Below, one piece after another: positions 624-61,975 of a stretch of 64,000 nt of DNA. The position numbers were made by a program, and so were the translations under genes. Source of the DNA: Perna viridis (Eukaryota). The DNA lies in the NCBI GenBank assembly GCA_037379345.1, contig CM074523.1, positions 4,038,525-4,102,524 of the forward strand, given 5' to 3'. How positions within the stretch are numbered: the stretch's first letter is position 1; each line of letters begins with the position of its first letter. The notes below the pieces were generated by a model. The model ran no database searches. It had not been told where the DNA came from and saw only the letters and a list, made by a program, of their open reading frames with translations.

Positions 624-1393
624 CTACAGTTTATCCACAATTTTGCTATTCATTTTCAGTACAGAAGCGTGGTCATTTGATGAGGGATGAAAATATTTCA
701 GACTTCCAGCTTTACCGTTTTCCTGAATGTTTTTGGCACTTAATTGTTTAGTTGTCTTATGCTCAACACTTGAACTCCTTGCAAACTTTGGAATCTTAGA
801 TTTTTCCTTGTCTTTCGGAGTCTCTTTGTCTTTACCCTTCACTTTCTTAGGAAGCTTACTGTCTTTATCTTTAACAGTGTCTGAAGATTTTGAAAGTTTG
901 CTTCTCGAAAAGTTGAAAAATTTCTTCTCTGGTTTCGAAATTTTACTCTTGGTATTGTCAGTCCCTTTTACATCCTGAGGTTTTTGGGTACTTTGAGAAT
1001 TTCCCTGCATTTCCTGAGATTTCTGTACACTGGGAGAATTTCCTTGTACTTCCTGTTTCACTTTCACAACAGGTTTAAAGTGAATTTCTGGTCCCTTTTT
1101 CTTAGCTTCATTCAGATTTGCATTTGGCTGCATCTGTGATTGGCTAGACAATTTGTTTTGAGATCCATGAGACATAGCACTGCATGGATTAGCTGATTCA
1201 TTAAGAGAATTTTGTAAAGGTGCATTTGATTGGCCCAACATCAAACTGGTTGCCTGTTCAAGTGGATCAACAGGTACTTCATTAAGAAAATCAAATGCAG
1301 CAACAGCTTCTTGTTCTGGTTCCCCATACCGGGTAAAGAACTGAGACAGGTCTACAGCAGATCTCACTGCAGTCTGTTTTACTACAGCTTTCT
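624..1393 (-). CDS. NCKAP5: NCKAP5-like terminal coding exon (EKAVVKQ...KIVDKL*)
   Basis: Acceptor ttttattttgcAG, phase 1 matches exon 12. In frame with ORF 624-1520. Basic tail with SKLP/SKIP motifs. Confidence 0.88.
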
Positions 1394-1864
1394 CTGCAAA
1401 ATAAAATACTACATTTAAGGAAATTGAAAAAAATAGTGCCATTAAAACTGGTGGTAATACACACATAAAATGCTGTCCAGCTGTCACATGACATATATCA
1501 ACAAATTCACTGATTTCCAAACAAGATAATGGAAAAATTTCTTACTACATTGTTAAAAAGGGAAGCAGCACCTTTTCAAAGGATGTTCTCTTATTGTAGT
1601 AATTTTTGCCATTAAAGATTGTTCAAAATTCTACTAAGGTTCCTGACATGGAAATTTCCAAAGGACACATTTGGTTATGAAATAATTCTGATAGAAAAAA
1701 TATTGTCCATTGCGAATTTCTAATATTTTACTTCTTCTGGAAGAAAATAATGTCATCCATGAACTGTTGTATGAAGAAAAATTTGTTGTAACTTTAATTT
1801 TCAGGGAGCTTATCTAAAAGAAAACATATCTTTTGCAAGTAATTATAAGAAATTAAGTACTTAC

Positions 1865-1979
1865 CTGCACCACCAATGAGACGAGAACACATCACATGAT
1901 CAACCCCAATGTTATCGTCGAGACTGTCCATACTTGCACCGCTCAAATGTACCATAGCATCCAACATGGCTGCCCTTGC
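1865..1979 (-). CDS. NCKAP5: NCKAP5-like exon 12 (ARAAMLDAMVHLSGASMDSLDDNIGVDHVMCSRLIGGA)
   Basis: Not in the ORF track. Acceptor ttctgtttctAG, donor GTaagt, 115 nt, phase 0/1. Confidence 0.85.
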
Positions 1980-3077
1980 CTAGAAACAGAAAATAAACAT
2001 TCCTATATAAACAATAATGTCTTTCAGGTCTCCGTAACAACTGTCATTCAATAAATGTCCAGTGATGTCATGTTCAAATTAGGGTTGCTAGCTACTTGTA
2101 CCAATTAATAGCTAGGTTTCTAAAAGAGTAAAAATTCATACAGGAATAACTAAGTCATGAAAGTTCTAAAATATAAATGCCCATATCTACATAGTGAGAG
2201 TATTCTGACACAACCAGAAAATGCACTCATTCAGCAATTGCACAAAAATGTCTGAAGTAAGGGAAATCCACAGCCTTGGGAAAATTCATATACATGTTAG
2301 ATATGTCCCAAAATTACTTCAATCCAAAGTCAGTCTACAAGTGTTAATGAACTCTACATGTAAATTTAATGCCTTGGAGTCATCCAAGCTAGAAACAAAC
2401 ATAGCCATCTGGGGCAAGTTCAATTCTCAAACATAAAATCTCAATATTCTGAAAAAAAAATATTGTTGAAATATAAACTTATTACATATGATCAATGAAC
2501 CCCATTCAATTTTCATCTTTAACCAAAAAGATACAAATCACATATTTTGGTGCTTAATATTGCTTGGTATTGTATTTTATAATGTTAAGACTGCAAGTGA
2601 AATATGATCAAAATCACCATGATTTTAATGCATTCAAAATGTACACATTTTAAAATGTAAATTTAATAACAATCTCTTGCTCACAGCAAAACATTATAAT
2701 ACATAAGCCAATTTTGGAACAATTTTATTTCTTAAATCTGAATAAAATTTTCACCTTGTTTTAAGTACTTTAACCAGAATTTAACTTGAACAATTTATCT
2801 AGCAGTAGATAACTGAACTTTTCACATTCAATTACAACTCATTCACATCTGAATGGTAAGTTATTCTGAAGGCTATTTTTTAAAAAATGCATTTGCTAGT
2901 CATAGTACCATTTAAAATAAAAAAAAAACCCCACAATACCCTCAATATAATCTGATTTTAAGTTTTCTTTTCTCCGACATTTTTGTATTGTTTGTCATTG
3001 AATATCACCAGCATTATTAACACAAACCTGACACTGAATTAATAATTCTTATCAATGCGCTATTTTGATAAACATCT

Positions 3078-3230
3078 CCGTGGTGAATCCAAAGATTTTG
3101 AAAAGGTTGGGGTTGGATTCCTGGCTATTACATGCTAATTTTTGCCAAAATCTTGTTTTCATAAAATTAATAAAATTTTCAAACAAAAGGGGATTCCAAC
3201 CCACAGAACCTCCCTCTGGACCTGCCACTG
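3078..3230. mobile_element. Degenerate cagtggcggatcc-type MITE
   Basis: Imperfect TIRs ccgtggtgaatcca / tggacctgccactg with G/C-rich subterminal runs. Confidence 0.55.
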
Positions 3231-3432
3231 CATCCATCATTGATGACATAAAAAGTTTTTTTTTCATCTCCTTGTAATGTTCATCAATTTTAGTTATATT
3301 TGACCTATGGAGATGCAAACGCTATAATAACTAGGATGACTGTAAATCATCTATAATCACATTTTAAGAATATAAAAAATATTTTGGATTTTCATTTTTT
3401 TTTCTAACTACGCAATATTAAGTAATCCTTAC

Positions 3433-4401
3433 CTGTGGATCAAGAACTCTGTTATTCTCAGTTCTCTCTCTTGGTTCTCTGATCAATTCCTTTCTGTGAT
3501 GGCTAGGCTGTGATGGTAAATGGCCTTCGCTATGGTGTTTAGGATGACCATGACCTTCAACTCTTCTCAGACCTCTCTGTCTGCTGTAGCTGTCACATGG
3601 TACTGGCATATTTCTATCTAGATTGGCTTGAGAGCTCTGAGCAGAGGGAGGAACTCCATTTAATTCAGGGTGTCTTTGAGTTTCATCCTCTTCCTTGATA
3701 GGAGGCTGAAACTGGTGATCAGTGACATTTTCTGAGGCAAAATTTCCATAAAATTCAAATTCATCATTACATGACGTGTCATCTGCATACTCATTTATCC
3801 ATTCTGCACATGCTCCAGTGTCAGAAAATGGTGAGGCCCCCATGATAAGCTCACCTCCACAGGGGGTCAAGTAAAACTCATCATCCTCGATCCACTGGTA
3901 ACCATCACCATGGAAATCAGAGTTAGGAGACACAAACATGTGTGAATGGTCTTCATTAGATTCCTCATCAGAATCACAACTGTCCACACCATTAAATGTC
4001 TGCTGTAAGGCTGTCACAGTTTTTGAAAGACTTTGAAGCTGTTTAGAAATTTGTTCAAACTCCTCTGAGTTCTTTGCCTTTGTGCAATTTGCACATTTTG
4101 AAGGATCTTTACAACCAGTACACTTTGTCTCCTCAGTCTGAACTTGTTCAGATTCTCCCTCATTACTTCCTGAGAACAGACTTCGATTTGATCCTACCAT
4201 ACAGAGACTGTAGTAATCGCTACGGAACTTGGACGGTTGTTCTATCATTGGACTAGATTCCTTACTGGATTGTCTTCCCCTTTCATCACCTCTCTCTTCT
4301 TGAAACAAAAAATCCTCCTTGTTACCATGGAAATCAGAAGAGAGAGGGTCATCAGGGAAGTCACTCCTTTGTTTTCCACGGATAGGCTGGTTGAACTTAG
4401 A
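3433..4401 (-). CDS. NCKAP5: NCKAP5-like exon 11 (969 nt, SKFNQPIRGKQ...RVLDPQ)
   Basis: Acceptor cttttttcAG, donor GTaagg. Extends ORF 3418-4308 upstream by 31 codons in frame. Confidence 0.88.
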
Positions 4402-4796
4402 CTGAAAAAAGAGGAAGTTGAAATCATACTTTCACTTCGGTATGTCATAAAAGGCAATACAATAAGGCCAATATAAAAAAATTACTAGATTCTCATTCTG
4501 AAAAAAAAGGAAAAATAAAAAATAAATTCTTCCCCCACCCAAATTTTTCAGGAAAGTTGGATGAGAATCTAGGATTTTGTTTATTATTGCCTAATCACAG
4601 TGTTGTATTCTGTCTTTTCTAGCAGTGAATGATCAAGTATTAATGTTTCATGACCTCTTTAGGTTTTCGAGTTAAATTTTATCACAATTTATCTTATAGT
4701 TCAAAAAGATTCATACTCACAAGAGAATAAGTAGACAGACAGATTCAAATTAAACATACATCCCAGAAATGAAAGTCAAGTGCCCACATTACTAAC

Positions 4797-4904
4797 CTCA
4801 AATGATTGTTCTAGAAAGTTCTGCCTCTGTTTTTTAGCCAGTAGTTGGGCAAAGCTATAATTATGTAGGTCATCATCTGATTCACTGTCTACTGAACGGG
4901 CAAG
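4797..4904 (-). CDS. NCKAP5: NCKAP5-like exon 10 (LARSVDSESDDDLHNYSFAQLLAKKQRQNFLEQSFE)
   Basis: Poly-T tract then ctgctccAG, donor GTtagt, 108 nt, phase 0/0. Confidence 0.85.
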
Positions 4905-5361
4905 CTGGAGCAGAAAAAAAAAGGTCAGAAATTGTCTCTCAAAAAATTTTATATTGTAAACACAAAACATGAAAAATAATGAACTACTCTTATCACCAAG
5001 CAACATTGATATCATAAAACAATGGACCGATTCAGAAACTTTATTGCATTCTGGGATTATTAATGTATATGCCTGACTGGTCGAGAGGTATTAGGAGTAT
5101 GTTGTGACAACTAAACATAGTTTAATATAGCCAGAAGTTGAATTTCTGAATTGGGCCAAAAATGACAATCATTAAGGCAATGCTAATGTTCTTCATATTT
5201 TTATATAAATGCTCTAGATACAAGTAAAATTTGTTCCTTGTATTTTATAATTTAATGTGCACTTAAAGGTCAGATAACCAATTTTTGTAATGCTCATAAG
5301 TATTATACCTCAGTATAATCATTAGCTTTTTCACAGTAGTTATACTTCTATTGTCACTTAA

Positions 5362-5573
5362 GGAGGTAGACCTAAGGTAAGGGACAAAACTCTTGAAATC
5401 AAAGATATGTTTGTATCGTATTCAATTTCACCAAAGCCTTTCAAGTGTTCATTTGAAACAGAATGAAATCAATCTACGTTACTTTGATGCTTACATGTGA
5501 TTGATGTCAAATGCTGAATACAAACATGATAATGACTTGTAAGAGTTGTGTCCCTTACCCTAGGTCTACCTCA
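5362..5573. mobile_element. MITE with ~33-bp TIRs and TTAA TSD (Kolobok-like)
   Basis: ttaa|ggaggtagacctaaggtaagggacaaaactctt ... aagagttgtgtcccttaccctaggtctacctca|ttaa (3 mismatches). A purine-purine terminus with TTAA fits Kolobok better than piggyBac. Confidence 0.8.
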
Positions 5574-5640
5574 TTAAAAAAATTCAAAATAATTTCATTC
5601 CATTGCTTTAGTAATGGTTTCATGATCCAGAAAAAAGTAT

Positions 5641-6514
5641 AAACAAGAGGCTCCCAGGTGCCTGAATTGCTCACCTGGTTGAATTTTGCCTTTCAAGGGC
5701 AATAAATTAAACAAGTTGTCCAACAATTTTGACTCAAGAAAACTTTGATAGGACTTATCATAAGGATCATTTCAGTCAATCAAAGTCTAAATCTATCATA
5801 GTTTTCAAGACATTGGCTGAAAACTGTAAAAAAAAACAACCTGTCATTTTCCCCTGTCAAGGGCAATAACTCTTAAGCCTGAAGACTTTTGTAGCCCTAA
5901 AAATAAGGATCATTTCAGCAGTTGAAAGAATTTGGCTAAACCTAACCGTTTTGGAGATATATGCGAAAAACTACTGTCTGACCCCTATGTTCTATTTTTA
6001 GTAACGGTGGCCATGTTTTTTGACGGATCAAAAATCCGACATCCATTCTATGCAGGATACCCCAAGGAACATTCATACCAAGTTTGGTTCCAATTGGTCA
6101 AGTAGTGTCAGAGAAGATATTTGAAAGAAATAACATTAAAAAAAGCAAAAAAACAAAAAAAGGGCAATAACTACAACGTGGCTGCACAAATTAAAATGAA
6201 AATTTGACTTCAAATAGATCTCATCATGCTAAACACTTTTACTCGGTCAGGATTGGGCTTAACCTAACCATTTTGGAGATTTATGCGAAAAACTATTGTC
6301 TGACCCCTATGTTCTATTCTTAGTAACGGTGGCCATGTTTTTTGATGGATCAAAAATCCCCATAACAGTTCTATGCAGATACCCCAAGGAACATTCATAC
6401 CAAGTTTGGTTCCAATTGGTCAAATAGTTTCAGAGGAGAAGAGTTGTTAACGACAACGATGGACAACAATGGATGGCAATAGCTCACATGGCCTTTAGCA
6501 AGGTGAGCTAAAAA
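5641..6514 (+). mobile_element. Non-autonomous Helentron-type (HINE/pearl-like) element with internal satellite-like repeats
   Basis: Starts aaacaagagg...gctcacctg. Internal ~190-bp blocks repeat at ~5935 and ~6256. Degenerate GAC-rich microsatellite, then terminal agctcac...gtgagct palindrome and A-run. Confidence 0.8.
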
Positions 6515-6581
6515 GGGGGAAAAAGGTAATTTCTGACTCCTTAAAATTCCATTTAGACTTTTTTTTTATTATTGAATTTAA

Positions 6582-6843
6582 TACAATGAAACCTGGTTAA
6601 ACTGAACCCTAAATAAACCAATAACCTTTTGAAATCCTGTCATATCAGTTTCGAAGTATATTGAACCTGAGTAAACTAAATGATTTCTACAGCCCAAAGG
6701 TAAGTTTGCTTTAGACAGGTTTACTGAGTAAACCAAATGATTTCCACAGCCCAAAGGCAGGTTTGCTTTACACAGGTTTACTGAATAAACCAAACGATTT
6801 CTACAGCCCAAAGGCAGGTTTGCTCTAGACAGGTTTAACTGTT
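6582..6843. mobile_element. Non-autonomous DNA element (tacagtgaaacctg-type ends) with internal 57-bp tandem repeat (~3 copies)
   Basis: Imperfect termini tacaatgaaacctg / caggtttaactgt. Unit cagcccaaaggcaggtttgctttacacaggtttactgagtaaaccaaatgatttcta. Confidence 0.65.
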
Positions 6844-6903
6844 TTACAAATAACATATTTGTGGCTTTTCTGACCTAGAACATTATTTCGGTGTTTGACA
6901 TAC

Positions 6904-9858
6904 CTGCTTCAGAATATGTTCCTTAACTATATCCTGGACTCGATCATTGACAGAAATCTCATTAATCAGTGAATGATGACAGCTACGTCTCAGTGTAGGG
7001 GCCAGTCTCATGTTTGTTATCATCTCAGTTCTTGTATTCAGTGCAGAAAGGGATACTGATCTTTCTAGAGGGCGCCCAGATCGATGTTTGGTTATGTCTT
7101 CAAAAGAATCTCGCCTCATGATTTTGTCCAAGTCAGAATCTGATAAAAAGCGGCAAAGTCCAGATGTTGAAGACCAATAAAATTTCTTAACAGTAGTTTC
7201 AAATTTCTGCAGTTTTGTAATATGTGCTAATTTAGCAGCTTGTGGTCGCATTGGAAAATCAAGTAATTTCTCATTGGAAGCTCCAGACATTTCACCATAA
7301 TCCTCTCTCTCTTCTGGAATATCAGACAGAAAATTCTCCTCACTAAGGTTCAACATGTGATAAATAGAGTTTCTATCTGCAGTCATGTGGCTTCTTGATG
7401 CTGTATGGTCAGTTATGTGATTTCTTGAAGAAGTGACATGATCACTCGAAAGTGTCACATGATCTAGGCTTGAGACAAAATGGCCTTGTTCATCCCTTTG
7501 GGTTATATTACTATGGTGACTTTCATACATAAACTGGTCACATGTAACAGCTTGAGCTTGTTCTCTACATTTATCAACTTGTTCAGAGTTAAGTCCCCTA
7601 CCATATTTCTCTTCTTCTTGTACAGAGACATTCAACATGACATCCTCCCCCAGGGACCGACGGTTCACATTATGAGATGGACTTTCCTTATGTCCAAGTT
7701 TACTATCAACTGAGTAAGATTTTCGCAAAGGAAAAGGTTTTAGATGGTCGTTAGCCTGTTCACATTGAGCCTCAAACATTTGTCTCATTGCCTTGACCCT
7801 CCCTAGAGAACCATTTCCTATGCTTCTATCATGAACTTGAGGAACAGTCCTTTTTGGTGAAGTATTTGGCTGTGAATGTGCCACTGATCCTGTATCAATC
7901 ACAGAGTTATTACAAGGAATGAACTTTTGACTAGTCTCCTGAGCAACTGTTATATCATTCCTGATTTGTAAGTCACATCTTAATATTGTATCCCTCTTCA
8001 ATGAAGAATCACTAAATTTTTCCATCATTTCTGGCTGAATATCACTAGACATTGTAGAATATCCATCATCTTTACTCCCTGACCTTTCAACCTTTTCATT
8101 TTTCACACTCTCGAAGCTTGAGTCAGACGACATGTACTTATGAGTCTGGGTTACATTTGCATCACTGGGTACTATCACAGTTGGAATAGGTACAGAAGAC
8201 ACTGAGTCAGTACTCTCAAAAACACCAGTTTTAAACTCATGTGGTCTTAGTACTCCAAGGTCATGACCCTGAGTTTTGATACGTAACCCTGGAGACTGAA
8301 CCCCCATGATGATACCAGGGGAACGTCTTCCAGCCACTGGGGGCTTTTTTGGAACTGGTGGAGGAGGCTTCCTGTTTGGCTGAGTTCCATGATGAGAATT
8401 TTCATTATTTTTCACTACAATTACCTCCCTATAAATATTTTGCTCATTTGGAGGCATGAAACTTTTCTCTCCACCAGTTGGAGTTGATTCTTGTGATGAT
8501 TTCATCTGAACCTTTTCTGACTGAGAACCAGACATACTGTTTGTCTCACTACTTCCTGACTGGTTCCTTGTCTTGTATTTCAGCTGGTACTGTCGAGATA
8601 AGTGGGGCATATAGTTTTCATCACTGTCAGTACTGCTCAAACTTGATGAACTGTATGCATGTTGCATATTACTCTTGTCCTTTGAACATATTACTAAAGA
8701 AGAAGGCCTATTTACTTTTGATTTGAGAGAGTGTGGTAGAGAGCCTCTCCTACGATGAGGACGAGGACTTTTTATTTTGTTTTTCTGTTCACTATGTTCA
8801 GTGTCTTTCACAATGTCAGGTTTTCCTCTGAGACTTGAGAACATTGATTTATCTTTCTTCTTTTTACACTTATCTTTCTTTTTGTCATCCTTATGAAATT
8901 GCGGAGTTTCAAAAAATGCGAATTTTTCAGTGGTGAAATTAGCATCAAGAAGCGTATCAGTGTCATAATCATCATCCAGAATCTCATTCACGGAAGCTGT
9001 GGAGCCGTTACTGACTCCAGACACCGGACGATTAATATCACTATCTTCATCACTATAATCATAAAAGTACTGGCCATTAGGAATGGAAGGAACTCTACTT
9101 GTACCAGTATTGATTGGAGTAACCTCCCTTTGCTTATGTTCCATCTCAGTCTGGATACGAGTTTGATTCTGTTTCGATGATAGAGCTCCCTGAGTTTTTG
9201 TAGAGGTCACTGTTTTAGGCACTCGTGAGTTTAATGATACAACACCTGAGTTTCTCTTTCCTGAGTCGATTTCAGTCTTTTTCTGTGGAAGTTTACTCTG
9301 TGAAGGTTGAGGTAGAGATGACTGAGATTTACTTGTCTTTTTCATTGGAATATTTGAAGAACTTGATGATTTTTGTAACTTAGGATTAATCTTGCTTGTA
9401 GATTTACTTAATTCTGATCTGACTGGCTTAGAACCAGGTTTGGTCTGGCTGACATGTAACATACTTTTGTTAATATGTTCAGGTTGTGACAAACTCCTCT
9501 TTTTAGTGCTCGATTCAGATTGGTTATGAACAACATTGTCTATCTGACCTTGAGCAACATTGGACGAACTTGAACTCTGAGATATTACACCAGGTTGTAC
9601 AAGTCTACTTTTTGACATTGCAGCATTCGTTGAATTTGATCTAAAAGTTCGTAATTTACTCGCTGTATTTAATGAAGACGTAGAATTGCTTCGTTGTTTT
9701 GTCCTTTCAATAGAACGCTCTGATATGCTCACATGTTTCATTTTTGGACTAGAATTAGTAGCAGGGAATTCTGTTTCTATTTTTGTCCTACATTGTACAT
9801 TGTCACAGTTTGCTCCACATTTAGAATTACACTTGCTGCTTTTGGGGTCCTCAAAGGC
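6904..9858 (-). CDS. NCKAP5: NCKAP5-like giant exon 9 (2955 nt, 985 aa, Ser/Lys-rich disordered region)
   Basis: Acceptor cctttgtAG, donor GTatgt. Extends ORF 6883-9741 upstream in frame (AFEDPKSSK...). Contains SxIP-like motifs, PPPVPKKP and SKDDGYSTMSSD. Confidence 0.9.
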
Positions 9859-11053
9859 CTACAAAGGATGATAAACAGGTAAAATACAAGTAAAAACCAT
9901 TTGACTGTAACTTCAGAAATCTTATTTATTAGCAACGTTTTCATTTTTTCTTTGTTCCTTCTGCTTGATATTTTCAATATTAGGCAACTGCCATGATACT
10001 AAAAATATATGCAATTTCAAATTACAATGTTATGTCAAATTGTCACAGATAAACAGAATTACATTATTTATAAAAATCTTGATAGGACTAACATCTTGCT
10101 ACATTTGGCTAACTGTGATACTTTTTGTCAAAACTTAAAAAGTGCCATTATTATGTGTAAATTTTTAAGGAATAATTTCTTGTTTCACTAAATTAATTTT
10201 TTACCACAAGACTTGCGATAAGAAATAGGTGTTTATTTAGAAACTACTTTGATTTACTGATACATGTATATAGCATGTATAACGATGCTGGTGTTGAAAC
10301 CAATTTCTTTTTTCAGTATTTTTTTTAATATATTATTATAAATGATATAATTCTTAAATATTTTTTTCGAAGAACACAATATAAGTAATGGTTAATCATG
10401 AACTTAAACTGTATATTTTTTTCACAGAAACCCCCTAAAAAAAGACAGCACAAAAACTGCATGGCTTTCGGTAATATGTAACGGTTTAATGACAAATAAT
10501 TTAATTCGTTTTGTAACAAGCCTTCTGATTGGTTGGTTCCTATTGTGCAACATGGTTTATTTTGTATAAAACAACTTTGTACTGTAACTTAATTAATGTC
10601 AATTGGTCCTTAGTCCATAATGCAAATAATCATCAACTAAATACATTTTTGTTATTGAAGGATCAAATCTTAATTTGGACTGGAATCAATTAGAAATTTA
10701 TTCATATTTTTGCCTTTAATTTTTTACCAAGTCATGCGTACAAACCAATTTTCAGCTAATTTAGGCTTGTCCATCAAAAAGAAAAAAACAAGCCTTAAGA
10801 ATATTTTTAAAATTTGAATTTTTTACCATAAGACTTGCTATTACAAATATAACAGTGAAATATCCAATGTACACATAATATTAAAAGTATATTTAATATT
10901 CTACTATTACGTGCTACCACAGCCATGGTAAAAAAGTGATAAACGCATGACCAAAATTTCACCCAACTCACACGCTGGGTCAATTAAAAAATATGAAGAA
11001 ACTAGTCCTATTAGAATTGAAATAAATCACAGAAACTTCATTAAGTCATTTCC

Positions 11054-11159
11054 TCATTGTTTTACCATGGGCTGGTCATTTATGTCATTAATTAACCCCT
11101 CACTATCACTTGGGGTGAAATAATGTGACATAAATGGCTAGCTTGTGGTAAAACAATGA
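11054..11159. repeat. Intronic inverted repeat, 34-bp arms
   Basis: tcattgttttaccatgggctggtcatttatgtca / tgacataaatggctagcttgtggtaaaacaatga with 5 mismatches. Confidence 0.85.
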
Positions 11160-11228
11160 CAAAAGGATTTATTGATTTATTTCTTTAAGTATTTAGTAAC
11201 ATCACAGTAGTATTGAAGTAAAACATAC

Positions 11229-20359: not shown

Positions 20360-21125
20360 GAATGTCTGAGTAATGTGATACAGACCATTTAATGTCAGGG
20401 TTATGTGATACGGACCAAGGTATGTCAGGGTTATGTGATACGGACCAAGGAATGTGAGGGTTATGTGATACGGACCAAGGAATGTCAGGGTTTAGTAACA
20501 TGGACCATGAATGCCAGGGTTTAGTAATATGGACCAATGAATGTCAGGGGTTTGTGATATGGACCAATAAATGTCAGGGTTGTGTGATATAGATCATTGA
20601 ATGTCAGGGTTGTGTGATACGGACCAATGAATGCCAGGGTTTTGTAATATGGACCAATGAATGCCAGGGTTTTGTAATATGGACCAATCAATGTCAGGTC
20701 TTTGTGATATGGACCAATAAATGCCAGGGTTGTGATATAGATCATTGAATGTCAGGGTTTTCTGATACCGACCAATGAATGTCAGGGTTGTGTGATATGG
20801 ACCAATGAATGTCAGGGTTGTGTGATATGGACCAAGGAATGCCAGAGTTGTCCAATATGGAGCAATGAATGCCAGGTTATGTGATATGGACCAATGAATA
20901 TCAGGGTTGTGTGATATGGATCAATGAATGCCAAGGTTGTGTGATATGGTGCAATGAATGCCAGGATTGTCCAATATGGAGCAATGAATGCCAGGGTTAT
21001 GTGATATTGACCAATGACTGCCAGGGTTATATGATATAGACCAATGAATGCCAGGTTATGTGATACTGACCAATGAATGCCAGAGTTGTCTAATAGGAAG
21101 CAATGAATGCCAGGGTTATTAGATA
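20360..21125. repeat. 30-bp minisatellite, ~25 copies (ggaccaatgaatgccagggttgtgtgatat)
   Basis: Head-to-tail periodicity with no unique spacers. Explains ORFs 20325-20537 and 20521-20745. Confidence 0.95.
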
Positions 21126-22109
21126 TGTTTTATCAGACATCACTCATCATCAATACCATATTAATCATAAACTAATCTATTACCATTCTCACCAGAATGC
21201 CAGTGAAAAATACATTTATTGTCAAAAAATAATCACTTTTTAAAGAAAAATGGACATTTTTTACAGAAAGTATTGATCATTTTATTAAGTCCCTTTGTTT
21301 TTCTCGCCATTCTGGAGCCATGAAAACATAAATCATTGATATATTGAGATGGTTATTATTTTCCAGATACTTTTTTTTATATTGTCATGCTGTAAAAAAT
21401 GTTTGGAATGGGCTTCATATTACTTCATCAAATACAAGAAGTTTTGGGTTACTGTGTTAACCTTATAAAAAGACTTTGCGACAGATAGAAATTTTCTGAT
21501 AAAGTCTAAACATATGTCAGCTCCCAACTTTGATGTCTACTCGAAATCCATTTATTTTTTAAAAGATTTTGGGACAAATTAAAAAATTGATCTACAAAAT
21601 GTATACTGGCCTTACATCAATACCTACTCAAAACTCATCTAGCTTTTAACATATGCCAGCTAACTGGTCATTTTCTACTTTCATTTCACAGCCCGTTACC
21701 AGATTGATATCAAACATCTGGGAATCATAGAAGCTATAAATATATTAGTTTCTATTTTTATCAGTTAAAGAAGCTGTTGAAAAATATCTCAATGATTTGT
21801 CTGATTTGTTAAGTGCAAGAGAAATGGGTTTATTTTATAATGTAAAATTTCATGTTGATAGTAATATATTTTTTTGTTTTTCAAGGAATGCATGAAACTG
21901 AATGACTATATGAAATCTGTAAGTACCAGTCCATATAAAATTCAAACACTGCCTATGGGAAAGCGATTCATGGTGTAGAAAAACCCATGGAAAAAACGAT
22001 GCTTTTTCACTGTACTTATGTTATATTTTTTTGTGACAATAGTCCTTTCTGTATCTAGATCTGTACTTAATACAATCTTAATACAATTGTACTTACAATC
22101 AGTTCAAAA

Positions 22110-23291
22110 CTATTATCTGAATATAATAGCATTAAAACCTATGATTTTTCAACACTGTATACTTCTATTCCCCATACTCAATTAAAATCCCGACTTAAAA
22201 ACATTATACATCGTTGTTTTTCCAAAAAAGATGGTACACCTAGATACAAATATATAGTTCTTGGTAGAGATTCCTCATACTTTGTAAGAAATAATTCCAA
22301 ATCATCTTCCAAATATACAGAGGAAGATGTTTACAAAATGCTGGAATTTTTAATCAACAACATATTTGTCCAGTGTGGTGGACATGTTTTTCAACAAACG
22401 GTCGGCATTCCAATGGGAACAAATTGTGCTCCTTTACTTGCTGACCTATTCCTCTACTCTTATGAGGCTGACTTTATAGCTGATCTGATCAGAAAGAAAG
22501 AATATCGTTTGGCTAGATCCTTCAATCTCAGTTTCCGCTATATAGATGACATATTATCTTTAAACAATCCTAATTTCGGGGATTTGATACATCGCATCTA
22601 CCCCAAAAAACTTGAGATAAAGGATACTAAAGACACTGTGAAGTCAGCCTCATATCTTGACCTACACTTAGAAATCGATGGTAAAGGACAACTATTGACC
22701 AAACTTTATCACAAACGTGACGACTTTTCATTCAGAATTGTCAACTTTCCTTTCATCTGTGGCAACATCCCTTCGGGTCCTGCGTATGGAGTGTTCATAT
22801 CACAACTCATACGTTATGCCAGAGCTTGCCGAAACTACACAGACTTTTTGTATTGCGCTAGAACTCTAACAAATAGACTTTTTGAACAGGGTTATGTTGC
22901 TACAAGATTGAAGTCATCATTACAGAAGTTTTATGGTCGTCATCACAAACTCGTGGATCGTTATGGTGTATCCATCAGCACTATGAAAACTGATTTATTC
23001 AACGAGTCATAGTTTCCTTTCCTCGTTTGTCTACCCCAGACTTGACTTTTTATGAGCAACTCGGCAGGTGTTTCTAGAAAAGCAGAGGATGCTTACCCTA
23101 TTGGTGCACCTGGTCCATGCTCCCAGTTTTTAGTGGAGTCCGAGTTGCTCATTTACTTTAGTTACTTTGTATGTATGATTTTAGTTACTTTATGTTCTTT
23201 GTTGTGTATGTCTGTTTTCCATGTCTGGTCTTTGTCCCTGGATTACATTCTTTTGATTACTGCTATAACCTTGGTTCCCTTGATTACTCTT
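22110..23291 (+). mobile_element. 5'-truncated Penelope-like retroelement (RT plus 3' non-coding tail)
   Basis: RT motifs TYDFSTLYTSIPH, GIPMGTNCAPLLADLFL, FRYIDD, SYLDL and thumb (AYGVFISQLIRYARAC), then a stop at 23012 with no C-terminal GIY-YIG domain. The ~280-nt tail recurs elsewhere in the window. 5' boundary is approximate. Confidence 0.85.
22113..23012 (+). pseudogene. Penelope-like reverse transcriptase fragment (~300 aa, uninterrupted frame, no start)
   Basis: The frame stays open upstream of the ORF-track ATG at 22338 and includes RT motif A (YDF at 22140). Catalytic YIDD is intact. Confidence 0.85.
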
Positions 23292-23663
23292 CAATATAAA
23301 ACACTTCAATTTTCTACTAAAATCAACCAAATCAAACCAAATCAAGAACAATAACTCTTGCAAAGTGTTAATTTCAGCCTAGTAGTGTTAGAGGAGAAAA
23401 GTTTTGAAAAATTGTTGATGCCAAGTGAGCTAAATATTTCAAATTCTATTGACAACATATACTTCTGTACAAAGAATTTTAAGTAAGGATGCAAGCATGG
23501 CAAGGCCAGAATGTTAATGGGGAAATTAAATTTAACAATAGAAAAATCAAGATACAAAATATCCTATTGTTTCCAATCTACTGGGTTAAGGGGGTGCACA
23601 CAGTTCACCAACACTTGTATCAGTTCCTGCATTTGTATCATTGTAATGATTAGCATGACATAC

Positions 23664-23797
23664 TTTTGGAATTCTGTCTGAAGCTGTTGGAATCTGGCTT
23701 GTGAATGGCTAGTTTCTGCAGACAATTCTCGTAATCTTTTCTCAGCTTCAGTTCTTAGCATTCTCTCCCTTTCCAAGTCCTTTAGAATGGAGTCTTT
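23664..23797 (-). CDS. NCKAP5: NCKAP5-like exon 2 (KDSILKDLERERMLRTEAEKRLRELSAETSHSQARFQQLQTEFQK)
   Basis: Acceptor ttttacAG, donor GTatgt, 134 nt, phase 0/2. Coiled coil similar to NCKAP5 LEEERHLRLQSEKRL. Confidence 0.9.
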
Positions 23798-26700: not shown

Positions 26701-27045
26701 CTGACCACATTATCTATGGACAACACTTTCACTAGTGTCTGACAGTGTTATTTATGGACAACATTGTCCACACCAATTATTTCAGATTAAACTGACCAGT
26801 TTGACCAAGGCTCTGGATTATGATGACCTTTTGATTAAAGGAATGATTTCCAAAGTTCAAGTTCGCCATTCATCTCCATCTTTCTTGACAATAATTCTAT
26901 TTATGCATTTACATGAGGATAAGCAATATTTGATAATAAGGAAAGATTTCCAAATTAATCTTCATGATGGTGTTAACAAAGAGGTTGACAAGTCAAGGTT
27001 TCTATTATAAAAGGCACACTATAAATACTGTGAAAGGTGTCTACA

Positions 27046-27266
27046 CATACAGTACACAAAGAGACGACCGTGACTGATCACCAACATAGTGGTACTCCCC
27101 TCTGAGAGTGGTAGCTAATAACACTATTATTGTTTAAGATTTCTTTCTAATTCTTTTTGGAAGTAAAGTTGGCCATAATAAAATAAACTGTGGGTTACCA
27201 CTCACCGAGTGGTGTACCACTATGCCAGTGATCAGTTATGGTATGTTTCTTTCTATACTGTATATG
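27046..27266. mobile_element. Degenerate foldback MITE (~70-85-bp imperfect inverted arms)
   Basis: tacagtacacaaagagacgaccgtgactgatcacc...agtggtagc pairs with gttaccactc...gtgatcagttatggtatgtttctttctatactgta. Confidence 0.7.
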
Positions 27267-29106: not shown

Positions 29107-29336
29107 GGCGAGTGTTTCTAGAAAAGCAGAGGACGCTTACCCTACCAGTGCACCAGGCCCATGATCCCAGTTTTTAGTGGAGTCTGAGTTGCTCACTTAC
29201 TTTTGTTACTTTGTATGTATGATTTTAGTTACTTTATGTTCTTTGTTGTGTATGTCTGTTTTCCATGTCTGGTCTTTGTCTTTGGATTGTATTTTTTTTA
29301 TTACCACTATAACCTTGGTTCCCTTGATTACTCTTT
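29107..29336 (+). mobile_element. Solo 3'-tail copy of the Penelope-like element
   Basis: Near-identical to 23063-23291 (gtttctagaaaagcagagga...ataaccttggttcccttgattactctt). Confidence 0.9.
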
Positions 29337-31643
29337 CATTATATTAAGGTATCAATGGTAAAAATCAAATTTATTCTATCAAAACAAAACCACCCTAAAA
29401 TGTATCTATTTTTATATACATATTTTCTGATCTTCTGTTTTCATTTACAGCATCAATAACTAAAACCAATACACAACTTATCAATCATCAGAGAATGTTC
29501 TAAGTACAAAGATTAATGAAAATCTGTCAAGAAAAGAAGCTTACAGAGAAAATTAAGAAGTAGTATCTCTCACACTGACATAATCCTCTCACATCATGGC
29601 TCATCTATAGCATCTGACAGCAAGGCCTGGGGAATGAAGTATCATTTAATATGGAGGGATTTAACAAGGTAGAGTTTTCTTAGGATATTATCATAGGGAC
29701 ACTAATCACAAGGTGATGGCTCTGTCTTAGTAACTCCTAAAGTTCTAGCATTGATTGAACAAGTTTTTAAGAAGGTTTACCAATAGTTTAAGTTCCTATG
29801 AGGGCCAAATGATATTGAGCAAGGCAATAGTATTTAGAATGTATAATAAATTTAATGGAATTTAAGTCTAAAATCAGATTTTGTAACATAGCAAATCAAT
29901 CTGGTTATTAACAGCCAATTTAACTATCTTTTTTGTGCTAATTTTTAGCTTAAAAAAATCTGAAAGAATCCATAAATGGAATTATCTGCCTTGTTGCTAG
30001 AAATTCCTGAAACCAGGTTACTATAGAGCACTTTAAATATGTACAGACTCAAGTCACTCTACAAAACAATATCAAAGGACTTCCTGTTGTGGTAATAGAA
30101 TAAAAACAAATGGCAAACCTCTGCACTCTAAATCTAAGGACATTTCAAAGACATTTCCTGTTGATATGAATTGATAACATCTAGTGTGAGAGGTCATTGT
30201 AGTCCTGGGGAACAGGGAACAAATCCAAGTCAATTGTTTTTCATACTTCCTGTTTTATAAGATTCTAATGTTCTATCTACAACTCATGTCTACATTGTGT
30301 AGAAATACATTGCCAACTCGAGAAATCAAAACATATCATTTAGTCACATAGTAAAAACAAATTTTGTTATCATAGATTGATCCAAGGGGATGAAACCTTC
30401 CCCCATCCCCCTTATGGAAAAAGCTCTGCTGACTTAATTTTATAGAAAAAAAGAAGGAAATCAGTGGAGGCTGAGCCTTCCTTATCATAGTTTCAGGCTC
30501 TACCACTGATCATGGTTTGGGCAGGTTGTCATGTCTAGCTGTACAAAATTGCTATTGAGTCTGGACAAAAACTTATAATTTTTCTGTTCCAAACTTAATG
30601 GGGGTCAAATACTATCAACAAATTCAAACTTGAAGAATTTGATTTAAATTTTCATCTTTCCCTGAACCATTTAATTAAACAACATCCAATTAATGTTCTT
30701 TCATTCATGTATTTTTTTTTCAAATTTTTGTTCAATCAATTGACTAACCTGAAATTTGAACATGTCTCAAATAAATCCTTCTTCCACTTCAAAACCTCAT
30801 AAATAACAAGCCATAACAGAACTCATTGAGCTCCATGTTATAAATTATACTACCTTCATACTGAAGCCCTCAAATCCAACCTCTGCTAAGGGTCATGCAC
30901 TGATGTACCCCTCCCTAATCAAATTAATACAATTATCAGCCTAACAAAGTATGACATTAGAAATTGTTTATAGAAAATAAAGCACAAAACTCTTATAAAC
31001 TCATCAATTTTTGGATCTCACACAGAAATAGATTCCACTAATCTTTGTCTTATCTTTTATTTTTCATGTGGAGATTAGGAATGTATGGAAACAAGGCCTG
31101 GACTGGTTTAAAAGTGTGTTCTTCACATTAGGCAGTGCAGATGCACTGACCATATCTTACAAGAAAAATATGAAGTTAAAGCCCTTGTCACCAAGAAGTA
31201 TTTATACACATGAAATAATCTTCTAGGAAAAGAAATGACTTTTCCATTCATTTCTTTTTTGGCAGGAAATAATGGCTATAGCAAAATTGATGACTTCATT
31301 GAATTACACTTTTTATCTGAAATATAAACCAAAGAAAGTTACAGACTCTAGAAGCAATGTCACCAACTTGAACCACATCACCCATCCATTCCAAGTCTGA
31401 TTTTATCCATACCAATACTAATATCATTGGAATTCGATGATTTGACAGGCACCCCCATGGAGAGAATGACCACCCTACAGATTAACAGTACAGATACAAG
31501 TGCCAATAATGACTGGGTAATTAATATTAGAGATATGAGGTGTATAGAGATATAACTAGATTTGACATATTCCATTTTATACTGATACTGACAAGTTACT
31601 TTGACACTGAACATGACTCCACTGACATTGTCATATTTGTCAT

Positions 31644-38506: not shown

Positions 38507-38679
38507 CCAAATACCTGAACCACGGTATACATAAATCTTCAGGCACAAATTTGTAAAAAAAAACAATCACTAGCTCAAACCAAGCTTTATCTTCAATAAA
38601 GCTTGGTTTGAGCTAGTGATTGTTTTTTTTTACAAATTTGTGCCTGAAGATTTATGTATACCGTGGTTCAGGTATTTGG
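38507..38679. repeat. Perfect inverted repeat, 84-bp arms with 5-nt loop
   Basis: 38507-38590 is the exact reverse complement of 38596-38679, including an A9/T9 run. Loop is cttca. Confidence 0.95.
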
Positions 38680-43900: not shown

Positions 43901-44612
43901 GCAAGAATATGTAAAATGGTCATAAAAAGTAAAGTTTCCAATATGATCATAAAGTTTTTTATAAACTTTTTTTTAACCTAGTTATAAACTCTCCATATTC
44001 ACTCTTCAACAAGCAATCCAAAATATTTTAATTCAAACCACAATAAAACACTTCCAACTAAACAGAATCTAAGAATGGACTTTATTAGGTGTATTTCAAA
44101 AAGTCGCTAAAAACAGAAACAAAATCATTGCAAAAGAATAAAAGAAAGTAAAAACCAATAAATAATTTTATCCTTATTCAGCAAGTAAATCATACTCGAA
44201 CTCATAATGAACTAAGAAAACATGTTCATAACAACTCTTCAACACCATACTCAAAGCCAACAGAGAAAAAAACATTTCCTCCATCTAGGTTCAGAGAGTT
44301 CCTACCAATTTACATAATGCCTGATATGAAATAAAATCCAGAATAATAGTTCTAAAAACTGTCCGTGAGCAGTTTCCATATGAAGAGGAAGGATATGATC
44401 AGTATGTGTGCTTGTCCATGCATTAATGATCTAATTGTTCTGCATGTGCAAACACAGTTGACAGAATCGACAAATGTATTAATTCATTATGACTGACCGA
44501 GTTAATGTAGAGAAATGATTGATCCTAAAGATGTTGGAATATTATAGGTATTGATTGGAAAAAGTGAAACAACCATCATGAGAAAGGTGTCAGAACAATA
44601 TATAAGTACAGT

Positions 44613-44956
44613 TCGTCGTTTGTCTACCCTGGACTTTTTATGAGCTACTCGGCGGGTGTTTCTAGAAAAGCAGAGGACGCTTACCCTATCGATGCACCTG
44701 GTCCATGCTCCCAGTTTTTAGTGGAGTCCGAGTTGCACATTTGCTTTTGTTACTTTGTATGTATGATTTTAGTTACTTGATGTTCTTTGTTGTGTATGTC
44801 TGTTTTCCATGTCTGGTCTTTGTCCCTGGATTACATTCTTTTGATTACCGCTATAACCTTGGTTCCCTTGATTACTCTTTGATTACCGCTATAACCTTGG
44901 TTCCATTGATTACTCTTTGATTACCGCTATAAACTTGGTTCCCTTGATTACTCTTT
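44613..44956 (+). mobile_element. Solo 3'-tail copy of the Penelope-like element with triplicated 38-bp terminus
   Basis: Matches 23023-23291. Ends in (tttgattaccgctataaccttggttcccttgattactc) x3. Confidence 0.9.
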
Positions 44957-60990: not shown

Positions 60991-61080
60991 TAGTTTTCCT
61001 TTCTTCTACCCCTGACATGATATTTTATTAGCAACTTAGTAGGTGTTTCTAGAAAAACAAAGGATGCTTACCCTACCAGT
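60991..61080 (+). mobile_element. Degenerate fragment of the Penelope-like 3' tail
   Basis: agcaacttagtaggtgtttctagaaaaacaaaggatgcttaccctaccagt matches the core motif. Confidence 0.75.
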
Positions 61081-61804: not shown

Positions 61805-61975
61805 GATGATGACATAGCAGGTGTTTCCAGAGGATGCTCACCCTACCAGTGCACCTGGTCCATACTGTTAGTTTTCATTGGCATCCTGGTTGCTCATTTG
61901 TTCCTTTGTTTGTGTAATTTATGTGCTTTTTTTGTCTGTTTTAAAGGTTATTTTTTCCCTTTTGGATTATGGATA
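61805..61975 (+). mobile_element. Old, diverged copy of the Penelope-like 3' tail
   Basis: gcaggtgtttccagaggatgctcaccctaccagtgcacctggtccat...ggttgctcattt matches the core. Confidence 0.7.

Follow-up and report, generated by a model that had tools for sequence, protein, structure and literature searches.

A stretch of 64,000 nt from the Perna viridis genome (contig CM074523.1 of assembly GCA_037379345.1, positions 4,038,525 to 4,102,524; hereafter the window) harbours a copy of a Penelope-like retroelement in which a segment rich in complementary strands lies just behind the reverse transcriptase (RT) reading frame. What is this segment, which element carries it, and what might it do? A preliminary description had regarded it as a cis-acting RNA of a Penelope-like element other than a hammerhead. 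This much is borne out by covariation across lineages together with empty Rfam scans, both presented below.

The motif lies on the plus strand and begins 40 nt past the RT stop, which is located at 23010-23012. Its outer stem, P1, is recognised from pairing and folding; it joins 23052-23064 to 23140-23152 in 13 bp, and its sequence varies by lineage. Inside P1, the 5' arm of P2 (23065-23070; CGGGUG in the family majority, CpG-decayed in the window copy and fixed in our search pattern) pairs with the 3' arm CACCYG (23107-23112). The P2 arms enclose, in order, palindrome 1 (23071-23080; 10 nt, 8 in some lineages), recognised by self-complementarity across lineages and predicted to form a duplex between copies; conserved block 1, R-G-CAG (23081-23085), whose CAG is fixed in the search pattern; five variable nucleotides (23086-23090), the 5' strand of a pseudoknot that pairs with 23113-23117 across lineages; conserved block 2, GCUYAC-YC (23091-23098), a candidate catalytic or scissile strand that is also pattern-fixed and is found independently in published tails; and palindrome 2 (23099-23106; 6-8 nt, majority TACCGGTG), recognised by family majority and by cross-lineage self-complementarity. 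The 3' pseudoknot strand (23113-23117), complementary to 23086-23090, is outside the search pattern. It is followed by P3 (23119-23139; identified by folding and lineage comparison), a hairpin of variable length that is missing in at least one lineage, L164. Palindrome 2 of the window copy reads TATTGGTG, two CpG transitions (23101-23102) away from the majority sequence, and this copy is a slightly decayed example of the motif.

The 13-bp outer stem, the CAGGTG/CACCTG pairing, the palindrome at 23071-23080 and a GCTCC/GGAGT hairpin had all been drawn in the preliminary description, and each is present. An AAGCA/TGCTT hairpin drawn with them can form in this copy, but its innermost pair exists only through a C>T change at 23090 peculiar to this copy, and one strand of the pseudoknot occupies its loop. 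The pairings named in that drawing are real; what it missed were the pseudoknot and the second palindrome. Folding of the 116 nt from 23045 to 23160 gave z=-4.0 on the plus strand and -5.3 on the minus strand; none of 200 shuffles reached such stability. Since both strands fold better than shuffles, folding energy alone cannot choose between them.

The element that hosts the motif is a member of the Naiad clade. According to Craig et al. 2021 (PMC8557442), the hallmarks of Naiads are an N-terminal GIY-YIG domain, a CxC motif, DKA in place of DKG and a C-terminal RT, in a body of 3.4-4.4 kb with 5' truncation and partial tandems that form pseudo-LTRs. The window copy (22095-23291, plus strand, the interval spanned by sibling alignments) is 5'-truncated and retains the C-terminal part of the RT ORF, with a YIDD motif and without a C-terminal endonuclease (22095-23012, in an open frame of 22071-23012); this frame matches Pfam RVT_1 weakly, at E=7e-4, under the curated cut-off. 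A full-length sibling in the same genome measures 3,409 bp and has N-terminal GIY-YIG, CxC, DKA and RT. The GIY-YIG match of sibling L353 (E=1.9e-4, just under the curated cut-off) lies in a frame upstream of RT, and the strings CSCKTS (CxC) and PADKA (DKA) are found in siblings L353, L354, L355 and L356. Domain order, CxC and DKA, unit size, tandem junctions and upstream repeats of variable length all agree with assignment to the Naiads.

In 60 copies chosen by their 3' end, the element terminates sharply at +226 nt, counted from the base that opens P2, and its 5' ends are scattered. Stretches not selected for the element contained 14 copies in 140 kb, which by extrapolation implies tens of thousands of copies genome-wide. 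Exact tail-to-head junctions occur at 124 places in the genome. The repeats upstream of the element vary in length, extending up to 621 nt upstream of the motif (27 examined), and 18 of the 27 contain the whole motif; two motif copies therefore often flank one ORF start. At G000:C3:46.03-46.08 Mb (L350-L352), about 16 full-length 3,409-bp units, 99.2-99.9% identical, form a head-to-tail array whose first unit is 5'-truncated and which stops at the exact 3' end; the ORF of the translated unit is broken. This array is compatible with either rolling-circle copying or expansion at the DNA level. Smaller Naiad arrays are found at C5:25.03 Mb and C6:47.10-47.15 Mb. The same genome also harbours older, minor motif-bearing Naiad families (L224, L226, L231, L233 and L036:906), which differ in their palindromes and pseudoknot strands.

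An ag/gt-bounded coiled-coil exon lies on the minus strand at 23,645-23,797, 350 nt beyond the element end, so the window copy probably sits in an intron of a host gene, in antisense orientation; the minus-strand interval 624-9858 was noted together with this exon. The window contains five copies of the family, all on the plus strand. The motif core had been thought to be retained in all four solo copies. This holds for the 44.6-kb copy, which is complete (44612-44879, 93.8% identical to 23019-23291), and partially for the others, which alignment shows to begin at P2 without the P1 5' arm (29107-29343), to keep only the 5' half of the motif (60995-61080) or to have lost most of palindrome 1 by deletion (61817-61920). 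The 44.6-kb copy is followed directly by a second copy of the terminal 55 nt of the Naiad tail (44,902-44,956).

A change in the 44.6-kb copy from CAGGTG to CGGGTG had been put forward as G-U-compatible and hence as evidence for the stem. This argument falls, since CGGGTG is the family majority (G in 100 of 114 copies, A in 12): the window copy has undergone CpG decay, and the 44.6-kb copy just retains the majority base. The substitution rate inside the motif (4.3%) equals that of the rest of the 3' UTR (4.5%; 164 aligned pieces), so the local copies carry no covariation signal, and we rejected them as covariation evidence because their decay is neutral. Nor are deletions evidently clustered in the motif; the 35 observed are spread along the 3' region.

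Divergent homologues were collected with a pattern that fixed only P2, CAG and GCTTAC-YC. A pattern search of metagenomes gave at least 121 stretches. The listed metagenome matches, 11 matches from the mussel genome itself and locus L031 make up 134 motif copies, which fall into 34 clusters by downstream flank, one cluster of 86 copies being entered as a single lineage. Some of the singletons belong, in decayed form, to larger families, so the figure of 34 lineages overstates independence. Of the listed matches, 113 have 200 nt or more of sequence in front of them; 34 of these are preceded by a Naiad RT in the same orientation, and the other 79 have no RT there, as would be expected if they are 5'-truncated copies. 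The motif is found 40-350 nt past the RT stop and about 170 nt before the sharp 3' end, and it follows RTs that are only 29-34% identical to the clade of the window copy (L129 and L139).

Viral contigs contained no pattern match and no relative of the RT. Prokaryote genomes gave 31 matches to a near-identical pattern, of which 30 are chance matches and one is an animal fragment. The 30 chance matches, which serve as a negative control, include no strong palindrome 1 and two pseudoknots. The animal fragment, L404 (RAYO01000111.1, 407 bp), is nearly identical to the 3' end of a pearl-oyster Naiad consensus and represents animal Naiad contamination of a bacterial assembly. Two loci, L148 (796-nt unit, terminating in a (TATC)n microsatellite) and L153 (987-nt unit), are apparently non-coding partial tandems with one motif per unit and are possible non-autonomous, retrozyme-like Naiad derivatives. 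Six others (L131, L170, L194, L198, L202 and L206) carry the motif on contigs of 45-51% GC with no detectable RT, and their hosts are possibly not animals. A Pfam scan of 43 of the 70 open frames from 11 loci (10 without an RT match plus L107) detected no RT and three weak, sub-threshold matches.

The variable parts of the motif can be tested for covariation. The pseudoknot, formed by the five bases after CAG and the five after CACCYG, has at least 4 of its 5 pairs in 30 of 33 lineages among the matches listed, compared with 8.1 expected by partner shuffling; the maximum in 5,000 shuffles was 17, and slid registers gave 0-4. Among the same listed matches, 23 of 34 lineages form 4 bp or more per half of palindrome 1, where 1.0 would be expected, and 21 of 34 form 3 bp or more per half of palindrome 2, where the expectation is 3.7; the two palindromes show nine and six distinct central tetramers, respectively. 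The central pair of palindrome 1 is Watson-Crick in 24 of 25 listed lineages, as against 25% expected; these 25 were chosen on the outer arms only and are not fully independent. An alignment of 34 rows, one for each listed lineage, has 92.9% paired cells and a covariation score of 0.517 as opposed to 0.165; 0 of 500 shuffles reached 0.517, and slid registers give 0.06-0.14. Two-sided changes are seen at all five pseudoknot pairs and all five pairs of palindrome 1. In nine contigs with long open RT frames, pairing is complete in palindrome 1 (44/44 cells) and in the pseudoknot (45/45 cells).

P1 and P3 differ among lineages in both sequence and length. For P1 the difference from a partner-swap control is modest: it averages 7.0 bp compared with 5.3 bp (maximum 6.4) in the control, forms anchored stems of 5-16 bp (15 loci), and reaches at least 6 bp in 23 of 34 listed lineages, barely above the shuffled maximum of 22. 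P2 was fixed by the search pattern and thus falls outside the covariation test. The invariant blocks were likewise fixed by the pattern, so the case for their conservation rests on published tails read by eye. The G preceding CAG is kept in 29 of 34 listed lineages. A 3-bp helix between RGC and GCU was considered and is weakly supported, its middle pair being broken in 5 of 34 lineages and in 3 of 9 contigs with intact ORFs. Overall, P1, P3, the pseudoknot and both palindromes change in sequence yet keep pairing. The unconstrained R-U position is A-U in 22 and G-U in 12 of the 34 listed lineages, and palindrome 1 and the pseudoknot in intact-ORF contigs show four G-U and no A-C; G-U thus outnumbers A-C where the sequence is unconstrained, which is in favour of the sense RNA.

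These results identify the motif as a real, ancient and conserved RNA fold of Naiad retroelements, maintained by compensatory change in divergent copies, the comparison on which the preliminary description would have had it stand or fall. A chance fold spread by copy number and devoid of function would suit the neutral decay of the local copies, and is refuted by the covariation across lineages and phyla and by the clean negative control; its probability is negligible.

The palindromes are best read as contacts between two copies. At ten loci they are nearly without stability as lone hairpins (0 to -0.6 kcal/mol) and stable as self-duplexes (-8 to -18 kcal/mol), so that pairing between two copies is the plain reading. 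The same conclusion is suggested by self-complementarity through the palindrome centre, which a hairpin loop does not need and which is kept across lineages, as would be anticipated of an RNA whose function depends on a dimer. We consider it very probable that the motif RNA dimerises. A palindromic loop had already been proposed as a dimerisation signal, and the comparisons support this role, with two palindromes taking part instead of one.

The motif corresponds to no RNA family that we compared with it. The window has 0 matches at gathering score to Rfam 15 (4,227 families), and scans of the motif gave only unrelated weak matches (E<=10 for the 3' UTR, E<=5 for 20 diverse loci); the Rfam search thus has no relevant match, with the caveat that such models can miss permuted or palindrome-opened forms, as happened with the sister twister discussed below. 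Neither strand of the 3' UTR in the window copy contains a CUGANGA hammerhead core, as had been noted beforehand, and the hammerhead arrangement of CUGANGA and GAAA around a three-way junction is absent, also by Rfam. No twister match to the motif was found, a class with two pseudoknots and a conserved loop 4, and no covariance model for hairpin, pistol, hatchet or other Rfam ribozymes matched. A SECIS element, which would be a kink-turn hairpin with AUGA...AA...GA following an ORF that contains an in-frame UGA, is not indicated either: the sole ATGA is fully paired in P1, and Rfam gives no match. An Alu-domain-like fold was considered on general features and dropped, because covariation assigns the junction strand to a pseudoknot and no SRP family matches in Rfam.

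HDV-like ribozymes have a nested double pseudoknot and a C-N-R-A joining strand. The motif resembles them in a short conserved helix with a G-U pair that is followed by a pseudoknot strand and then by a variable hairpin. It lacks the nested double pseudoknot and the C-N-R-A strand, has a single pseudoknot of 5 bp instead of 1-2 bp, lies at the 3' rather than the 5' end, has a P3 that runs directly into P1, and is without an Rfam match.

The full-text literature that we searched contains no description of this fold, subscription journals, Repbase/Dfam notes and bioRxiv supplements being outside its reach, and the HRIMA motif supplement of PMC10085705 has no GCUUACUC or GCUUACCC string.

The fold was nevertheless visible in published data. 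We inspected by eye the tails of 28 of the 54 Naiad consensus sequences in the supplement of PMC8557442, with names assigned by file order. Eleven of these 28 tails carry the motif, in two Clytia, five bivalve and four hemichordate families, where it went unremarked in the portions of the paper available to us. Palindrome 1 is intact in 11/11 of them, palindrome 2 in 10/11, and four or more pseudoknot pairs form in 11/11; P2 and the GCUYAC-YC block, both read by eye, are present there independently of our pattern. One further tail, probably that of the clam-shrimp family, has a variant. The same portions report that no canonical hammerhead was seen in Naiads, and the only other 3' RNA structure they describe is a SECIS, in four families. 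Naiad-1_Chem carries the motif, yet in the authors' table it is flagged 'HHR_core' somewhere in the element.

Other tails in this published sample carry other structures. Six of the 28 (ctenophore, box jellyfish and four bivalves) have a twister-like fold in which two palindromes replace the first helix, six have a CUGANGA string, and four have nothing visible; none of the 28, as judged by eye, combines two kinds of motif. In this supplement, short palindromes border the hammerhead core strings in the tails of Naiad-1_Dst, Naiad_Amil and Naiad_Anas, which may be dimeric hammerheads of a variant form that escaped the authors' descriptors. In our own collection, the tail of L139 has a CUGANGA string and that of L142 matches a loose twister regular expression. 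With these two loci and the flag on Naiad-1_Chem, the tail types are not strictly exclusive on paper.

The twister-type pattern has 186 exact matches in the mussel genome. Of 25 of these loci that were fetched (L295-L319), 13 have a Naiad-type RT whose end lies no more than about 200 nt upstream of the match, and the new motif is absent from all 25. Rfam gives a weak partial match to twister-P1 in one locus (12.8 bits, E=3.9), and a scan of 12 such loci gave none; beyond this partial match the correspondence to twister, presumably of the type-P5-like order, is our own mapping by eye. The sister motif occupies the same slot past the RT stop and has two palindromes in series, the only feature common to both tail types. 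It differs in having two pseudoknots and a twister loop, where the new motif has one pseudoknot and the CAG and GCUYAC blocks, with its conserved core between its two palindromes. The RTs of the twister lineage are mostly about 50% identical to those of the window's clade (34-53%), and both groups are about 30% identical to the motif-bearing L129 and L139. In an RT tree rooted at the midpoint without an outgroup, the twister lineage is nested among motif-bearing Naiads; a search of this genome for distant RTs returned the dominant family at 30 of 30 loci and provided no new tails and no outgroup. The new motif and the twister-like motif alternate in the same slot behind the Naiad RT stop. Full-text searches found no paper that joins 'Naiad' with 'twister'.

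Because the motif occupies the slot in which sister elements carry known self-cutting RNAs, it is likely to be a self-cutting RNA itself. Among the functions offered at the outset (RT recognition, dimerisation, self-cleavage), this exchange with twister-like motifs favours dimeric self-cleavage. That the motif cleaves itself in some manner seems to us somewhat probable, and for the fuller proposition, an undescribed self-cleaving ribozyme that forms dimers, we would put the chances at even. A wholly new self-cleaving class is a shade less probable. The complete picture falls somewhat short of an even chance: a new class, obligately dimeric through two palindromic duplexes and common to cnidarian, mollusc and hemichordate Naiads, in which the chassis is kept and the core exchanged. 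To our knowledge only about a dozen natural classes of self-cleaving ribozymes are known. A genomic context shared with known ribozymes is the route by which new classes were found, and several motifs obtained by this logic did not cleave (PMC6765202).

The proposed mechanism would run as follows. The palindromes would form duplexes between copies, joining the upstream and downstream repeats of one transcript or two separate RNAs, and the invariant blocks CAG and GCUYAC would build the active site. Cleavage in both repeats would free a unit-length RNA, which might close into a circle and serve as a template copied always from the same point, the element 3' end; such copying could give both upstream repeats of variable length and head-to-tail arrays. 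The requirement for a dimer would stop tens of thousands of solo intronic copies from cutting host transcripts. The motif does occur twice around an ORF in partial tandems. Upstream repeats that reach 621 nt upstream of the motif cannot derive from a linear RNA cut at the motif; their source must be a tandem left uncut, a circle or a template jump.

The motif would thereby do the job of the hammerheads of other Penelope-like elements. Minimal Penelope hammerheads with a palindromic helix III cleave as dimers and need a second copy for that helix to form (PMC4209133). They resemble the motif in their slot in the 3' terminal repeat, in a palindromic helix formed only between two copies and in having two copies per partial tandem, but the motif lacks the CUGANGA and GAAA core, has other invariant nucleotides, and has two palindromes instead of one as well as a 5-bp pseudoknot. 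If this reading is right, Naiads keep one dimerisation chassis and swap the catalytic core (hammerhead variant, twister, new class), and these Penelope-like elements all need paired, self-cleaving terminal repeats for their template RNA. The job would be of a known kind, and the novelty would lie in the fold.

Every covariation result fits equally well with a non-catalytic element, whose double palindrome would bring two terminal repeats together and whose pseudoknot core would serve as a binding platform for loading the Naiad RT or aiding template jumping, much as R2 elements have a pseudoknot in their 3' UTR. The position of the motif between the RT stop and the sharp 3' end suits such a role, as does its retention in the apparently non-coding tandems L148 and L153. 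Nor do copy ends show a cleavage footprint: 5' ends do not pile up at any position of the motif in 60 copies and 27 upstream repeats, and a cluster of genomic 5' ends at -157, once a candidate footprint, proved to be an alignment break caused by the reference copy. An RT-binding core, however, should be common to close relatives, whereas RTs about 50% identical carry the twister-like fold and RTs about 30% identical keep the new motif, with just the two palindromes shared by both tail types. We regard this explanation as serious and on the whole unlikely. Even without cleavage, a double-palindrome dimer conserved across unrelated cores would provide a handle on the origin of pseudo-LTR tandems.

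Dimeric self-cleavage could also be achieved by a rearranged twister-sister-like ribozyme, the invariant blocks being catalytic-loop strands joined across the dimer and cleavage falling between Y and A of GCUYAC; we judge this improbable. The twister-sister(-like) core of LINE-1 and OR4K15 (PMC11620745) has the LINE-1 strands G7 C8 U9 C10/A11 A12 and G36 C37 U38 A39 G40, with residue 38 extruded and variable. The blocks GCUYAC and (G/A)CAG equal these loop strands (GCUC/AN and GCNAG) save for the missing extruded residue and A12>C. By the same source a C>U change at the cleavage site retains twister-sister activity. Three of nine intact-ORF contigs differ at the equivalent of G36, a variability more easily reconciled with a non-canonical pair than with a 3-bp helix. 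On the other hand, LINE-1 activity is almost lost with A12C, and the phosphate adjoining residue 38, the residue missing here, is contacted by G7 (PMC11620745). One published variant of the motif, in the tails inspected, has CAU for CAG. The motif has neither an SL4 loop nor P1/P2 stems flanking the blocks as the known order would have them: the blocks are five nucleotides apart on one chain and those five belong to the pseudoknot, so that the known two-stem topology is absent. Rfam finds no twister-sister match even at E<=10.

Some other role, such as protection from exonucleases, an aid to 3'-end formation or a function of single-stranded cDNA during insertion, would accommodate the strand symmetry of the palindromes and the equally good folding of the two strands. 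The bias to G-U over A-C at free positions of the plus strand speaks against this explanation, and the swap with twister-like folds would be left unexplained; we consider roles of this kind very improbable.

The window contains several further repeats. A tandem array of about 770 bp, with a unit of roughly 30 bp, occupies 20,360-21,127, and a near-perfect inverted repeat of 173 bp (97%) lies at 38,507-38,679. Weaker fold-back regions are seen at 27,044-27,266 and 11,038-11,175.
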